Of a stretch of 64,000 bases of DNA, positions 6,652-41,258 are shown in pieces. The notes under the pieces are model-generated. The model was not told where the DNA came from. It did no database searches and saw nothing but the letters and a program-made list of their open reading frames with translations. Both the position numbers and the translations under genes were made by a program. Where the stretch lies: assembly GCA_004022145.1 (NCBI GenBank), contig RCNU01000001.1; one strand, written 5' to 3'. Source of the stretch: Paecilomyces variotii. Lineage: Eukaryota. Numbering within the stretch: the stretch's first letter is position 1; each line of letters opens with the position of its first letter.

Positions 6652-7974
6652 TTGTCCGCTTGTCAAGCTGTCGGGAATGTTCAGCTGCTGGCTTGTCAGT
6701 TTGATTCATTCAATAGAGGCATCACCGGTGGGGCAGCCGGTTCGAAATTCTAGTGCTTTTTGACACATCTGCTTTTCACCATTAGCAGCATTGTGCTGTT
6801 ACCTGTTCACAAAGCGTTTTAGTGGTTGCTCTCGGGGTTTGAGGAGTTTGCTCGGTTCCTATTATTCTAATCAGCGCCGGCCTTCTAGAAGCATTCGCTT
6901 TGTTTCATCTTTTTAGTTTCTAATGTCGTTCCGTGCTCCAGTCATGATCCCCTGGTAGCAAGGACTCGATACGTTCCAGCATTTGCTGTATGTTTCTTCC
7001 TGTTTCCTGTTTATCGTTCGGGGCCAATGCCTGAATTGGCCCCATACCAGCGTGTGTACTACACTGTTCTCTCCTTGCCACTATTTGTGACCTCATCCAG
7101 TAAGAGGATCTGCTCGGCGGCCTCTTTGTCGACATCTTTTCTCCTTTGTGTGTACATGATCGGAAAAAACGGGTATGCGATGACACGGGAAATCTCTTTG
7201 GACCGAACCTCTTCTGTTTTTGTTTGTTTTTCGCTTTCTCTCCCCCCACTTTTTTCTTTACTTTTCTTGTTGAAGAGCTTTTATCAGACTTTGTTCGGAG
7301 TCTGGGTGGTGAAGGTTTCGACATATGTATTTGCCAATTATTACAGATGAGTCTGAAAGTGAGTTATCACATAACAGCCTTATTCATTTCTTCATTCGTC
7401 TCTCCATAGATACTCTAGAAACGATTGGGTTGTAAATACTCGCATGAGGACGAGGAAGTTTTGTTCGTCCTATCACTCCTGATATATTGAGACCAGTTGA
7501 GCTGAGCCCCAAGACACCAATTTACCCTGTCGTAAAGGTCATCATAGTGCGCCTCGAACTAGGGTCCCTAACGGCAAGTGAGAGCGGTGGAAATTGGTTC
7601 TATATCGTTACCGCATTTAGAGATGAGCGCCTCGTTGTCTGTCCCAGGATCCGACCGGGATGGCGCCGTCAGTTCGTCCTCTGATGCCAAACGTCGGCAT
7701 AGACGTGATTGAGTGTCAGATTGCCTGATACGCACAGGCATGAACATCCCTTTGCTCGAGGAAGCTGTAGCTGATGAATAAGTTCCACAGACATTGTGGA
7801 CGATAGACCGCTGGACTAATATCCGGCAGCATGATAACGGCGAATGCTGTGGGCGCTACGCCTGTTTTCCATCAAGTCTCTTATCCCAGTACGGAACGAC
7901 ACGATGTACCCATGGACGAGGATCGCCATGATCATTCGGTATTTGTCGACTCCTTGATGCTGCAACTGCGATCT

Positions 7975-8808
7975 TCACTTGAGCGTGATAGCGATCTCGA
8001 CCATGTTCACCCATCGTGTTCGAGATTCGGGCAATTCCACATCACCAGAAACGGCCGCCTTTGCGCGTCGCTTTCTTTTCTTCGACGGCTGCTTCGATGG
8101 AGCAGCAGCTTCCGATTCCGCAGGGCGAGTCGCATCTTCGCCGATCGCAGTCCCATCCTTCTTATCATCATCACCACTTTCCTCCCCTATCTTCTCCTTC
8201 TCCATCTCTTTCCTCTTCGCCTCCTCATCCTCCACAATATCATCAACAACCAACACCGTCCCCGTCTTCACTCGCACCTCATACTCCTCCTCTTTCTCCT
8301 CAAACCACCTCCCCACACTCAAAGCCCTCTCAATCGCTCTCCCAGTCGCCTTGATGAAAACCTCCTCTTTCCTCAACGCCTCCTGACCCTTCGCTAGACG
8401 CGCCAGCTTCTCTTTCTCACTGATCTTGTTATTGCCCAGGTCCACGCCCGCAGTGGCTCGTTTCTCAGCATGGCGCAGCATTTTCTGGACGCGCTTCACG
8501 ACGCTCATGAAGGGAGTGTTTGTGCCGACGTAGATGACTTTGGGTACGGAGGATCCAGCGTATGGGGACGCGACTGGGGGGTGGGGGATTGGTCGTTTCT
8601 GCACGCGGGCATCTTGGATAGTGTAAGCGTTGGGGTTTTAATTAAATCCATTCCCATCTGGGAAGAAACCAGCAGTGGATATTGTATAGAATATTAGAAA
8701 TGAAACGATATGAAACAAAATAAACGTACATTTTGGAAGTCTCACAAGATCTTTATTCTTCTTCTCAAATTGCAGATCTTTGCTGAGAAGCTTCTCTTTT
8801 GCCGCCAT
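7975..8808 (-). CDS. POP7: RNase P/MRP subunit Pop7/Rpp20 (Alba fold)
   Basis: Exon 8808-8730, intron 8729-8613, exon 8612-7975; motifs KVIYVGTNTPFMSVVKRVQKML, VFIKATGRAIERALSVG, VKTGTVLVVDD, RTRWVNMVEIAI. Confidence 0.85.
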
Positions 8809-9648
8809 GACGGAGGTAAACGGAGAAAAAAGGATCAAAAGAATCCCTGCTAAGTCTCGTGGGGATTCGTCGCAAGACTGTCTCGGAGATAATAGTTAAC
8901 TTGATAATCAGTAATCCCCTCTCAGAAGAATAAGAAATCTGGGATGTTGTTTTGCGCGAATAAATCAACCCTGGAGAATCGGCATGAATTAGTCTATGGT
9001 ACAAGGGTGAATTCTGCCGCTTTTCTCCGCCAAACTCTCTTCGTTTCACGTGTTGGTAGTCTAGTAGTAGTAGGATTAAGTATGGGGGTTCAGGAGTTTT
9101 ATATTTATATCCGACACGTTCTAGGTCTGATCGCCGGTTTAACTTGGTTGATAATTATGTGGTTGATTTATTTTGGGGAATGAGGAATACTGAGCTGTTG
9201 GTCTACTTACTACCGTAGTACCTATATATTTCCTAACTCCTACGGGTAATAGCATCATGCAGTGAGTACGAAACAAGTTCGTATCTCTCATTCCATATAG
9301 ATATACTGCGATGGATATAATCCATCAAAAAGAACAAGAAGCTCATGAAAGACGAAATGAAATTTCCAGTGATATACGGTAAAAAGTACAAGTTCCCATC
9401 AAAAGCGCATTATCCTCCCAAAGTCCCACAAGGCTATCCCCTATATCCCGTCCATGCTTTCCCATGGACAAAGTGGTATTTCTGAGCTGCCATGGCTCTA
9501 AACACGATCCAAACCCAACGTGATTGTAGCATTGGTTTCGTCGCTCGGGAGCCATGGTCTATAGCACGGTGAATGATAGACCTAGGTCATGCAGGTCCTA
9601 TTGATAATGCATCACAGCCACCCTCAACTCGAGATCTTATCATGCCGT

Positions 9649-10866
9649 TTACGCAATGAACTCTCTTACGGCGAAGCGTCCTCGGCCACGGCGACCGCCT
9701 CCAAAGCCTCCAAAGCCTCCAAAGCCTCCAAAGCCACCATGCTGGCCACCTTGACCGCCCTGGCCGCCCTGAGCTTGGTTGTTTTGACCATTGTTTCCGC
9801 CCTGACCACTGTTTCCGCCCTGAGCCTGGCTGCTCTGACCACTCTTGGCAGCGCTGCTGGAACTGCTGCTAGCAGCGCTGCTACCAGTGCTGCTACCAGC
9901 GTTGTTCTGGGCATTCTGCTGGTTGTTGCTGCTCTGGCCAACAGTGAACTTCTGGCAGTCATCCTGGGCACCACGTTGCGCAACCTAGCAAAAAGCCGTT
10001 AGCCAAAATCACCCTTCCATCTAGACAAAACTATTCAAACTTACAGGCATCAGAACGGGCTGGTGGTTAGCAGACGAAGTCATGGTGCAGACACGGTAGA
10101 CACCAGCAGGGAGGCCTCCAGCAACATCGGCTGATAGACCGCCATTTCCATCTCCGGCATCGTTGATACCCTTGAAGAAGGCGAATTGCGTTGCGTCAGG
10201 AGGTTGTTGAGTGTTGACGTCGTTCCCGAGAGACTGGATGGTGACATGGGTGTGACCGACGACCTTACCACCCTGCAAAGCCTGAGGGGCGGCATAGTAG
10301 GTGTTATCCGGGTTTGTGAAAGTACCAGCTTGAAGGTTGTCGACTTGCAAATTGACTTGGAAGTCCTGGTTAGCTGGGATATCCTGCATAGCTTGTGGGT
10401 TCGTAATAATGGTCGAGATCATGTTGCTCTGTGCTGGAATATCTCCCATAACTGTAAAAAGTGTCAGCCATAGTTCACGAGTATAATCAAATGACGGTGA
10501 GACAAACCAATTCCACTGCAGGAGCCCTGCTTCAATTGCTGACCGTTGGTCAGAGTCTTTCCGGAACAGAAGTTGATGAAGTTGGCATTGTCCCTAAGTC
10601 TAGTCAGCAACGATCTTTTTGGTCATGGGGTTATCAACTTACGTTACAGAGGCCGCTGTTCCAGGGTCTGCAGAGGAGTCAAGTCCGTTGGATTGACTCC
10701 CTTTCTGGACATTGTTCGGATCCAGTGCGAGGTCACTGCTACTGCTTCCGCCGTTGTCGTTGTTGTCGTTGTTGTCATTGTTGTCATTGTCATTATTACC
10801 GGCCAACGCGACGTTCAATGCGCTGGTAGAGGCCAGCAAGACCAGGAGGAGGTTCTTGTAGAACAT
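9649..10866 (-). CDS. Secreted protein of unknown function with a conserved Cys-containing core and N/D-, Q/G- and GGF/RGG-rich low-complexity ends
   Basis: Signal peptide MFYKNLLLVLLASTSALNVALA; introns 10642-10594, 10507-10452, 10044-9985; core NFINFC..TLTNGQQ..GSCSGIVMGDIP..GHTHVT..FFKGINDAG..NHQPVLMPVAQRGAQDDC; ends ..GGRRGRGRFAVREFIA*. Confidence 0.85.
9698..9735. repeat. Coding tandem repeat (CCTCCAAAG)x~4 encoding GGF repeats on the minus strand
   Basis: Directly visible: cctccaaagcctccaaagcctccaaagcctccaaagcc. Confidence 0.9.
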
Positions 10867-13192
10867 ATCGACGGTTGGACTTCAAAAAAAAAAAAGGATT
10901 TGAAGGCAAACTTTCAGGACAAGGTTGGCGTCTTCCACAAAAAGAGATATCGACACTCAGTGCTCGCGGTGGTCAAGCGAAGGACTTCGAAAAAATTCCG
11001 GCTGGCGGAGTATTGGTAAATAGATACAACAAAGTCGACTGCAAAATAAAAAGGCAAGCCAAAGAAAATAGATCACGATCAACGTGATTTCCTTGCTGAG
11101 AGGAGAGCGAAGCCGCGAAGGGAGACTGGTGGGAGAATGAATGGAATCCCTCAAGAATGCAAAGCGGCACAAATAACTACCTCTGGCAGATTGAGAAGAA
11201 AGGAGAGAAGTGAACTGAGCAACTGAGCACGGAGTAGGAATGGAAGAAAACGGCCGGAAAGGCTTGGACATGAAGGGCTATTAAATGCCAAGACGATCAC
11301 ATCTCGAGAGAGTGGTATAGATCATGAAGCCTGCATGAAGCACATGGGATAGTGTGAAACCGGGCCTGGCGGGGGGGACTGTCGCAGGGTCCCGAGGGAG
11401 AAGAAAGGTTGGTAACACCATAATTAGTTCTCCGACAAACTTGGCAGATCGAGGAGCAAATCTGGAGGCCTTCTAGACAGATTAGGAGTGAGAACAGCCG
11501 CTCTATTTCCTGTCTGGGTGTGCTAGTTACTCCAAGCGCCCCAAGAGAGACACCATAGGAACCGAATGGGCGTGCCGTCTGACGATGAACGCCGCACCTT
11601 CGTCTGGGCTGATACACCCCAGAGTCCGAGCCACATCTGATCGATCGACGAACACTGGACACTACTGATGAGGCTCATAACCACCGACCCTTAATACCAG
11701 TCCTCGATCGCGAGGCGTTGCAGCGGTCGCGATGATCGTGACTGCATAGAGTAAATCGTAGAAGATAAGTTAGCTTACCATTTTCGCCTTCAATAGTTAA
11801 CTAGTCCCCGACAAGCAAGACCATCACCGAAACCTGGAACGAGATTATTTGCCTTTCATCATTTCTAGATGCACGGTATCGCAGATGTTTGTCAAGCGTA
11901 CCTTGTATTTAGACACTTTGTTTGGACGTAGCAGCTTCGATTGGGTGTTTTCCAAGCATGCCTAGACGCTATCTACATCGCCAAGGCCATCACCACTATC
12001 AAGGACGTCTACGTTTCGATCTGTGAACACTTCGCCAAATCAAGTCATGTCGGGCATTATGGCCTCTCGATATAGATGGGTTGTCTCATGCTCGAATACT
12101 CTAAACTGATCGGGACTGAAGGATTCTAAGTGCGGCAACGGTATGATTTCCTAGCCCAGCAGTCCAGCTGTTTCCAAATCTGTAGTGGCGCCTGTTGTGT
12201 AGCCCCTGATCATCCCAGGACAGGAAATCTGACAGCACATGTTCCATCCTCGAAAGCGACAGACGATTAGCACAGACCAGATTCGGCAATATGAATAATC
12301 GGGGCACCCTTCGGGATATCCCGCCCACGCTGGGTTGGAGGATTTTCTCCTATTATCGTCGAGCGAGACCGGAAAGCTCGGCCAGTCGACGTTTCGGATT
12401 CTCGGACAGGATGTCGACTGCCCTATATCACATCGTCTATAGTTACCTGCGTTTCTGGAAGTGGCGGCTTAGAAAGCAGATACTGCACAACCGGTCCCTT
12501 TTTATGGATGCCGCTGGTACTTGCTCTGTCCCATCTGAACCGATGAGACAGGTTTTTCCTAGAGAGGAAACTCGAAGTCGCTGAGGGAAATTTTGTCAGT
12601 GATCCCGCGAGTAGGACACAAAGCTGACGTAGATAACCGACCCTGCCACGGCAATGTCGGCTATTTTCTAGAAGAACCCTCTCTGTCTCGCGTTAACACT
12701 CGAGTGACCGCAGCATGGAGGACAATGCATGGACTCCTTCAGCATGGAATCGCCCTGGATATCGGACCCAGACGTATAAGCAGTTAGGGATGGAGTATCA
12801 GAAATCAATTGCCTCACTGTGTTTTCCTAGACAGGCGAGAGGTCGACGCCCTTGTCCAAAAGAAGAAAAGCAAATCTGCGTTGCTTCTTCTCCAGGGAAA
12901 TGTATCATGTCTATTGCCCTCGATGACAACATGAATTGTTGAAAACCAAAAACCAAAAGGAAAGGAACAAAGATAGTAAGAGCAGAGAAAGTGAGTTGAA
13001 AATACCATTGCCGCATAGACTGTCAAGAGACAATATTAGTGACGATAATAAATAGTCCTTCAGAACGAATTCCGTCCGCCATTGACCGGTGGGAAAGCCC
13101 TCATGCAGGCCACAGTGATGCTTGAAGACAATTGATATACCAATAAACAAACGATGGCAATTTCACAAGAAAGAGTACAAGCATAGATGGCA

Positions 13193-14277
13193 CTACAAGA
13201 TTGATCGAAGTAATTTGCCCTCGGTAACAAAGACTGCTTTTCCGGATAGTGTCACAGACGCTACTTTGTCTCCGTTCTCATTCAGTACAACTTCAACGCA
13301 GATCTGGCTTGGTCGGCCCATTTCGACGCCTTGTTCGAAAGCAAAGATGTGTCTGGATCCTTTGCCGCCCTTGTGCAGAGCCATATAACAGGCGATAGTG
13401 CTACACGCAGCACCGGATGCTGGATCTTCAGCACCATCTGCAATCATTCGAACGCGTATTCGGTTGATGTGAGGCTCTTCTCTTGAATCGGGGTCAAGCT
13501 GCACGTAATAGACACAGCCGCGATATGAGGATCCCCAACCATCATCCAGGTAGGCCTCCGGCGCGTCGCCCACCTTCAAGCTCTTCAGTAAAGAGGGCTT
13601 GTTTGTGAAGTCGACGAGGGTGAAAGCCAGGCCCTTGACAAACGAAACCAGCGGAAAGGAACCTTCCATTTCGGCGACATCTCTGTTTTTCCGAAGGTTT
13701 GGTTGGACCGCCAGAACGTTGTCTGACGGTGTCTCCCTTTGATGGATGTGGACACCATGCGGCACCTCTGCTGCTGCAACCTGTCGACGAGGGTCGAAAA
13801 AAATCGGAATGCGACCCGCTTTCGTTAGTAACGTCGAGGTCCAAGGCCCTTCCTCGTTGGCAATGTGGTGTTCATGATCCAATTCCCGAAAGATGTAATG
13901 GGCGGCCCCGATCACCGCCTGACCGTCGAAACTCAGTTCTTCGTTCCGACTGTAGATATCCAACCTTCGCGAGGCACCCGGTTCTGTATCATGCAGGAAG
14001 GCCGTCTCCGCTAGATTGAACTCCCTTGCGATTTGCTGTTTTCTTTCCCGCGGTAGGGCGTCATTCCTGGTGCTTACAATAGCTAGCTGGTGACCACGAT
14101 ATCTAGACAGATAACTAACGTTAATATTGATGCTTAGTGATAGATAGTTCGTAACTATTGGGAAGTTATACTTCTCTGAGGTAAAAACATCGGCGGTCAC
14201 TGCGGTTGGTCAGATCGTCTGAAGATCGTAAGCCAGAGGCTGATCTACTTACCAAAAGTGAATGGTCCGGAAGCCAT
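13193..14277 (-). CDS. PhzF/PhzC (phenazine biosynthesis-like, DAP epimerase fold) family protein
   Basis: Introns 14252-14200 and 14171-14103 give MASGPFTFVTADVFTSEKYRGHQLAIV; motifs IAREFNLAETAF, EDPASGAAC, EQGVEMGRPSQI, VTLSGKAVFVTEG. Confidence 0.85.
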
Positions 14278-40217: not shown

Positions 40218-41258
40218 ATGGTTCTCGCCTTCGACAAGTGCGAGACGCGCCCGGCGCACATTGATGCCATTCTCAGCGGCCTCGACCGATACAACCCAGA
40301 GACGACCACCGTCTTCCAAGACTACGTGGTGCAGCAATGCGAGGACAGGACCTTTGACTGCTATGCTAACCTGGCTCTGCTGAAGCTGTGAGTATTTCTG
40401 CTTTTCTCCTGCTCTCTTTATCTTGTCAGTTCGGGATTTTATGTGAGTGTGGGGTTACCCATTACTCGACGGGTTCAGATGATGATGAACTTTTTTTTAC
40501 CACGTTTCCTATTACCTGACCTCCCCTCTTGAACCGGGGGAGTATGGAGATCAATTATTAGCTCTACCTGAAATTGTACCCGCGAAACAGTCATCCCGGT
40601 TGTTGGTTTGATGGATCGTATTTGCTTTGCTGCATTTCGGGCCACGGTTTGCTGACGATGATCGACTCATATCCGGTATAGCTACCAATTCAACCCTCAC
40701 CTCCTCCAGCCTGAGACGACGACAAATATTCTCGCCAAGGCTCTCACCGTCTTCCCCTCTCCCGCCTTCTCCCTCTCCCTGGCACTTCTCCCCGCGCACA
40801 CGCAGCCTTTCCCTTCTTCCAACAGCGAGGAGTCCTCATCGCAGACTTCCGACTTTGTCGAGTCGATCCAGAAGCTCGCTCGTCTGAACACTCTGCTGGA
40901 GTCTGCCCAGTACTCTCTGTTCTGGTCGACCTTCAACTCTGATGACCTGTACGCTGACCTGGTCGCTGATGTTGCTGGGTTCGAGGAGCTGGTGCGTGTC
41001 CGCATCGCTGTCGAGGTTGGCAAGGCATTCCGTGAGATCAGCATCGACGTGCTTGCTCAGTGGCTGGACCTACGCAGCCGTGAAGCCCTTGAGAAGTTCG
41101 TCGCCGACGTTTGCGGCTGGGAGGTCGACAAGGCCGCTGCCATCGTGAGAGTACCCAAGAACAAGGAGAACGAGGCCCGCAGCGAGATCAAGGGCGAGCG
41201 TGTTGGAGTTGACATGTTCGGCCGTGTCATCAGGAGAGGTTTCGAGCAACCTGCCTAA
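40218..41258 (+). CDS. eIF3k: Eukaryotic translation initiation factor 3 subunit K
   Basis: Exon 40218-40387 (..[26 protein letters not shown]), intron 40388-40681, then [31 protein letters not shown]..; stop 41258. Confidence 0.93.
40470..40582 (+). ncRNA. Intronic box C/D snoRNA with two rRNA antisense guides
   Basis: C box ATGATGA (40479-85 or 40482-88), D' CTGA 40516-19, internal stem CTCCCC/GGGGAG, C' ATGGAGA 40544-50, D CTGA 40568-71, terminal stem CGGGT-CA/TG-ACCCG. Guides TATTAGCTCTA (complement of SSU UAGAGCUAAUA) and CACGTTTCCTATTA (pairs with LSU UAAUAGGGAACGUG, one G-U). Confidence 0.88.

Follow-up and report, generated by a model that had tools for sequence, protein, structure and literature searches.

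Among described box C/D snoRNAs, the closest counterparts of the RNA considered here come from a fungus, a plant and man. Nc CD32 of Neurospora crassa is an intronic RNA of 82 nt whose D guide (entered as 11/0) is assigned to 18S-Am161 and whose D′ guide is assigned to 18S-Um167; the homologues listed for it are Arabidopsis snoR18 and human U44, with none in S. cerevisiae or S. pombe (Liu 2009; PMC2780460, Table 1). The portion of Canzler et al. (2018) available to us reports Nc_CD_32 from Sordariales. In the accessible part of the Arabidopsis study (PMC8053127, Table 1), methylation of 18S A162 was found experimentally by RiboMeth-seq and assigned to SnoR18, and a second site detected by RiboMeth-seq, A2935 in 25S rRNA, is assigned to the same RNA. 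The table of an A. fumigatus cDNA screen contains no guide for an 18S A16x position.

In the window analysed here, a 64,000-nt stretch of Paecilomyces variotii DNA, a candidate guide of this type lies in the first intron of the gene for translation initiation factor subunit eIF3k. The host protein is 99% identical to P. variotii proteins (Eurotiales), its best named eIF3k match, and the relatives listed for it bear the name eIF3 subunit K. Exon 2 contains the Pfam domain PF10075 (CSN8_PSD8_EIF3K; E 8e-38), and a protein atlas likewise places the product in the eIF3K family. In assembled contigs from two RNA runs (X6 and X10), 40387 is followed immediately by 40682, so that 294 nt with GT..AG ends are skipped. 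The spliced contigs and the Pfam domain bear out the initial annotation, made from sequence inspection, in its choice of a 294-nt eIF3k intron as host. A putative branch site, GCTGAC, is found at 40652-40657. The features of the locus are collected in Table 1.

Table 1. Features of the eIF3k locus and of the snoRNA in its first intron (window coordinates).
Feature	Coordinates	Strand	Basis and remarks
eIF3k exon 1	40218..40387	+	ATG at 40218, ends in phase 2; ORF and sequence; spliced contigs end at 40387
eIF3k intron 1	40388..40681	+	294 nt, GTGAGT...TAG; sequence and spliced contigs
Outer (precursor) stem, 5′ arm	40466..40474	+	Pairs with 40578-40585 in MFE and centroid folds
Stable RNA span, ~97 nt (predicted)	40475..40571	+	X17 contigs, which do not give ends or abundance
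Box C, ATGATGA	40479..40485	+	Sequence; aligns with box C of the 38 other sequences of alignment A1
D′ guide	40501..40514	+	Positions 2-15 upstream of D′; LSU complementarity
Box D′, CTGA	40516..40519	+	Sequence; C[TC]GA in 39/39 aligned sequences
Inner hairpin between D′ and C′	40521..40542	+	7 bp, 40521-40527 with 40536-40542, loop CTTGAACC; folds
C′-like box, ATGGAGA, degenerate	40544..40550	+	Sequence; conserved columns in alignment A1
D guide TATTAGCTCTA	40556..40566	+	Positions 2-12 upstream of D; SSU complementarity
Box D, CTGA	40568..40571	+	Sequence; X17 contig leaves the window sequence here
Outer stem, 3′ arm	40578..40585	+	8 bp, one bulge; folds
eIF3k exon 2	40682..41258	+	Includes stop codon; ORF, Pfam PF10075

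Boxes C, D′, C′ and D and the terminal and internal stems had been recognised in the initial annotation, and all are in place. Boxes C and D lie close to the 5′ and 3′ ends, respectively, of a segment closed by the 8-bp outer stem; a second copy of box C, at 40482-40488, overlaps the first. Between them is an internal D′/C′ pair with a degenerate second member, the heptamer ATGGAGA, which we name C′ presumptively. Two antisense elements of 10 bp or more end beside a box of this kind, the D guide at box D and the D′ guide at box D′. Each of the two guide words is found once within the window.

Targets were assigned by a script applying the D+5 geometry to the rRNA of a complete rDNA unit verified with Rfam (L034; SSU 7848-9647, LSU 10137-13933), which is a eukaryotic contaminant of a metagenome-assembled genome (MAG) and not P. 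variotii's own rDNA, both target stretches lying in conserved cores. On this template the D guide forms 11 Watson-Crick base-pairs, with no G-U, with the SSU sequence TAGAGCTAATA; the perfect complementarity initially claimed is thereby found on a verified SSU. Position 5 of the guide (T 40563) lies opposite the second A of TAGAG, the residue originally singled out. This is A162 in L034 numbering, position 161 in the SSU of a second rDNA (L015) and, we presume, Am166 in human rRNA. Its identity with the human U44 site, another point of the initial annotation, agrees with Table 1 of Liu 2009 (PMC2780460), where U44 is entered as the human homologue of the 18S-Am161 guide. The predicted SSU target is very secure.

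The initial annotation was right on the D guide and its SSU target and overlooked the LSU pairing of the D′ guide. This element pairs with the LSU sequence TAATAGGGAACGTG over 14 bp (positions 2-15, one G-U; L034), and its position 5 (A 40511) faces U3359 in L034 numbering. All other guide matches in L034 rRNA are of 9-10 bp with 2-5 G-U pairs; the best SSU match of the D′ guide, 9 bp with 2 G-U, falls elsewhere than the Um167 target of Nc CD32. Arabidopsis U2922, G2923, A2935, A2947 and C2949 map to L034 LSU offsets 0, +1, +13, +25 and +27, with agreement of the bases, and the window's target is at offset +14, one nucleotide 3′ of A2935, the plant SnoR18 site. Because Arabidopsis Um2922 is equated with yeast Um2921 in the available text of PMC8053127, the target corresponds to Arabidopsis U2936 and yeast U2935. 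No site at the predicted LSU U appears for Neurospora 26S rRNA in Table 1 of Liu 2009 (PMC2780460), and a literature search that included Aspergillus RiboMeth-seq found no rRNA methylation map of any Pezizomycotina species.

Conservation was assessed by one metagenome scan for a C-box hexamer followed, after a gap of 45-75 nt, by the D guide and box D. The invariance of box C, D guide and box D among the matches is of course built into this pattern, and introns of eIF3k without the snoRNA escape being counted. The scan yielded at least 124 snoRNA-like matches in at least 109 loci. When these loci were searched by tblastn with both eIF3k exons of the window, same strand, 49 of the 124 matches listed were found to lie between sequences resembling exon 1 and exon 2. 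Orthologous exon 1 was located at at least 47 loci among the matches listed; exon 1 lay a median of 51 nt away and exon 2 a median of 81 nt (47 listed matches with each exon found), and exon 2 identity to the window ranged from 44 to 100% among the eIF3k-hosted matches listed. The LSU-directed D′ guide, outside the search pattern, is present in 42 of the 49 eIF3k-hosted matches listed.

Five classes can be told apart by the D′ guide. The 42 listed matches of class F, all in the eIF3k intron, carry the D′ guide ACGTTTCCTATTAC followed by C[TC]GA, and 41 of them select the identical LSU U. Class S (6 listed matches, 5 in the eIF3k intron) has an SSU-directed D′ guide. Among the 45 plant-like matches listed (class P), none is in eIF3k and 38 point to the A immediately upstream of that U, which is the SnoR18 site. 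Class B (12 listed matches, 0 in eIF3k) has the D′ guide GTTATCCCTGTC, which in 7 of the 12 selects LSU G3239 (L034). The remaining 19 listed matches, 2 of them in the eIF3k intron, share no common guide, and many resemble chance matches.

Two alignments were made: A1 joins the window to 38 unique class F sequences (39 sequences), and A2 compares whole introns from the window and four relatives (5 sequences). In A1 the D′ guide is near-invariant although it is absent from the search pattern. Conservation reaches at least 90% in the C′ columns T82, G83 and G86; spacers, hairpin arms and flanks are variable. The introns of A2 share their splice-site ends, boxes, guides and a few isolated columns, and have diverged in the rest. 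The 16-nt flanks of a given locus pair better with each other than do flanks mixed between loci (-6.25 versus -4.16 kcal/mol, 46 orthologous loci; Mann-Whitney p 1.8e-4). The outer-stem sequences vary from locus to locus, as would be expected of a terminal stem. Folding of 37 unique class F sequences revealed a motif, TGAAYC, in the loop of the inner hairpin (window 40528-40535) that is kept in 28 of them as the stem arms change; compared by eye with rRNA, the motif shows complementarity of at most 5 bp, too short to count.

The initial annotation had named conservation in orthologous eIF3k introns as a check of its proposal, and boxes, guides and position are indeed kept in the 49 listed matches. 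This bears on a non-functional reading of the locus, in which chance box-like motifs, or a decaying relic, would happen to lie in a long intron. One could point here to the modest single-sequence fold z-score (-1.92) and to the blank outcome of Rfam at gathering scores. Such an origin is nonetheless extremely improbable, mainly because 49 listed metagenome matches show the whole arrangement again in this intron, with boxes, both guides and position kept in orthologous introns that have otherwise diverged. That contigs from an RNA library cover just the snoRNA segment (see below) also argues against it.

Assignment of the LSU target to the D′ guide rests on canonical geometry and strong conservation, and is a prediction. 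In a different reading, which we consider unlikely, only the D guide methylates, the D′ pairing being accessory, as a chaperone contact with pre-LSU rRNA, or serving snoRNP recruitment. The degenerate C′ box would fit such a role, as would the fact that no published methylation at the LSU U was found in Table 1 of PMC2780460 or in the available part of PMC8053127; the latter source also describes extra, non-methylating pairings as common among Arabidopsis guides (45 of 104 sites). Against this stand the full guide geometry of the D′ element, with 14-15 bp starting at the second position upstream of a CTGA or CCGA box, its retention in 41 of the 42 class F matches listed, and its plant counterpart, which addresses the same LSU stretch and is assigned, in the accessible portion of PMC8053127, to a detected 2′-O-methylated nucleotide (Nm).

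Even less probable, in our view, is that the D′ guide methylates the plant SnoR18 adenosine (Arabidopsis A2935) through a non-canonical +4 register. The two residues are adjacent: among the matches listed, 38 of the 45 in the plant class, whose D′ box is TTGA, point to LSU 3358 A, and the fungal class points to the neighbouring 3359 U. Targeting of neighbouring nucleotides in a non-canonical manner was validated for several Arabidopsis guides, according to the footnotes of Table 1 in the consulted part of PMC8053127. The same text credits the D+5 rule with 104 of 111 Arabidopsis sites, however, and the distance from the pairing register to the GA of D′ differs by one base, without exception, between the 41 fungal and the 38 plant sequences listed; both points favor a canonical choice of the U by the fungal guide.

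RNA library X17, from a food-fermentation metatranscriptome, supplies evidence of expression in the form of contigs assembled from a related strain. Two of them, both short, match 40475-40545 and 40516-40571 letter for letter; no other part of the intron is covered in X17, and the uncovered stretches carry no evidential weight. The second contig runs past 40571, the last base of box D, as G followed by 22 A. The A run may reflect either an oligoadenylated 3′ end of the snoRNA in the cell or tailing during library preparation. The coverage hints at a small RNA extending from 4 nt before box C to box D. A 20.5-kb contig from another run (X15) was discarded as processing evidence, as it spans exons and intron alike and is uninformative.

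Taken together, the locus very probably encodes a double-guide box C/D snoRNA of about 97 nt, freed from the spliced eIF3k intron and directing two ribose methylations. Its making and action would follow the familiar course. The RNA would be transcribed within the eIF3k pre-mRNA, as intronic snoRNAs are matured from their hosts; the outer stem would join boxes C and D, allowing the core snoRNP proteins, which in this class are fibrillarin/Nop1, Nop56, Nop58 and Snu13, to bind; and, after splicing and debranching, exonucleases would degrade the intron as far as the protected segment. By the D+5 rule, the D guide would then place a 2′-O-methyl group on the SSU adenosine whose counterparts are A161 in Neurospora, A162 in Arabidopsis and the U44 site in human rRNA, and the D′ guide, pairing just 3′ of the A-loop helix, would place another on the LSU U. 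The snoRNA is likely to work as do SNORD44, SnoR18 and Nc CD32, and is a real, unannotated member of a familiar type.

Comparison with these relatives, made for Nc CD32 from published table entries rather than from its sequence or host gene, brings out likenesses and differences. Like the window snoRNA, Nc CD32 is an intronic box C/D RNA of a filamentous ascomycete and addresses the same SSU A through an 11-bp D guide; its D′ guide is directed to 18S-Um167, whereas that of the window RNA matches LSU, and membership in CD_32 by D′ target was rejected on this ground. Publication of Nc_CD_32 concerns Sordariales, as far as the available text goes, while the window form occurs in Eurotiales, Leotiomycetes and Dothideomycetes. 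With plant SnoR18 (RF00359) the RNA shares an identical D guide word, the Rfam consensus having UAUUAGCUCUA before box D, and a related 5′ guide; both are double guides for the 18S A162-type site and a site in the same LSU stretch, judging for the plant from the accessible part of PMC8053127. The plant RNAs differ in that their D′ box, TTGA, selects LSU 3358 A and not, as in the fungal class, 3359 U (L034); in that their genes form tandem clusters and are not in eIF3k; and in that the copies, measuring 67-75 nt from one pattern end to the other, are shorter and have no long inner hairpin. In several plant-like contigs (L150, L059, L087 and others) these clusters are tandem arrays of up to five RF00359 genes (Z102/R77, SnoR18-type), a few hundred bases apart.

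An Rfam/Infernal search, put forward in the initial annotation as a further check, recognised no family: the window gave 0 matches at gathering scores, and no snoRNA family was reported for six fungal loci (L071, L062, L125, L115, L088 and L080). The best sub-threshold match of the window was to RF00359 itself (snoZ102_R77, plants), with 17.9 bits (E 6.7) against a cut-off of 40, and membership in this family was rejected; plant-like matches score 57-96 bits with the same model (3 loci tested). We therefore file the snoRNA outside the curated families, as it fails the RF00359 score and differs from Nc CD32 in its D′ target. SNORD44 models gave no match to the window at E up to 10. SNORD44, which we take to be intron-encoded, has to our knowledge no LSU guide; its likeness to the window RNA lies in being the named human homologue of the 18S-Am161 guide (PMC2780460, Table 1). 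The window snoRNA may be present in snoStrip under another family name. AM921920/CD_35, considered as a counterpart, was rejected; it is Afu-191, an unrelated Pezizomycotina double guide (5.8S Gm75, U2 Am32). As earlier work had described the SSU site and its guide from a filamentous fungus, plants and man, the initial annotation rated the novelty of the locus too high. Within the sources accessible to us, a search on eIF3k introns found no literature linking eIF3k to a snoRNA.

Host proteins give an indication of the taxonomic breadth of the eIF3k-hosted form. Beside the window itself, the eIF3k of one class F locus (L071) is 97% identical to that of Cadophora sp. (Leotiomycetes), and that of a class S locus (L062) is 76-73% identical to those of Acrodontium and Teratosphaeria (Dothideomycetes). 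By these protein similarities the form spans Eurotiales, Leotiomycetes and Dothideomycetes. An annotation gap is thereby filled: the SSU A161/A166-type guide, published in Sordariales according to the available literature excerpts, is now found in at least three more Pezizomycotina classes. Alignment A1 could seed a covariance model for genome annotation.

Five class S loci (L053, L062, L066, L067 and L099) form a Capnodiales-like group of Dothideomycetes in which the snoRNA lies in the eIF3k intron and carries the D′ guide TTTAGCATGAA followed by CTGA in place of the LSU guide. These D′ guides are directed to SSU U171 in L015 numbering, a position derived by hand from one exact 9-base match (9 bp). 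On sequence grounds, the second guide appears to have been exchanged while the host intron stayed the same, which would make the locus a case of a snoRNA settled in one orthologous intron with its second guide swapped, LSU in most hosts and SSU in the Capnodiales-like group. The sixth class S match (L115) lies outside eIF3k; its D′ guide selects SSU U168 in L034, similar to Nc CD32, and no ORF of a Pfam family was found on the snoRNA strand (minus).

Elsewhere the same SSU guide is found in different surroundings. Class B loci (L080, L086, L088, L101, L109 and L123; e.g., L088:2501-2577, minus) carry the same D guide, and in 6 of the 6 loci tested the snoRNA closely follows, on the same strand, an ORF with the Pfam domain Ribosomal_S6 (bacterial/mitochondrial type). 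Given this neighbour, the SSU guide has another conserved host in another lineage. In four AT-rich loci (L102, L120, L146 and L157; e.g., L120:2501-2587, minus) the same D guide is accompanied by the inner hairpin and loop GGAGATTGAATCCCTCC; here the 5′ half is short and lacks the LSU guide, and the loci are outside eIF3k by tblastn. They may represent a homologue in yet another fungal lineage. A tRNA lies about 730 nt upstream of the L102 match, on the same strand.

How the fungal and plant double guides are related can be addressed only tentatively. It is possible, if rather doubtful, that the eIF3k-intron snoRNA and plant SnoR18 are orthologues, going back to an ancient double guide that predates the plant-fungus split, and that in Pezizomycotina the D′ register slipped by one base and the snoRNA became locked into eIF3k intron 1, so that loss of eIF3k removed both modifications in budding and fission yeasts. 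Were this orthology to hold, the one-base slip would have created a lineage-specific Um beside the A-loop of the peptidyl-transferase center, entered on no rRNA modification map, and eIF3k loss would account for the joint disappearance of both modifications in these yeasts. Loss of host and guide together in the yeasts is plausible in view of the strict eIF3k hosting in the 49 listed matches, and offers a concrete, testable reason why yeasts without eIF3k lack the modification. In other lineages the same SSU guide has other hosts, tandem clusters in plants and the vicinity of the S6 gene in class B. The D′ guide of the window, for its part, predicts one unlisted LSU ribose methylation beside the A-loop.

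The search for rRNA templates showed eukaryotic SSU rDNA to be present in at least 50 assemblies whose labels name bacteria or bacterial MAGs (L001-L050, e.g., L034, L015 and L031). L034 contains two rDNA repeats, with a group I intron in the LSU (L034:12474-12816).
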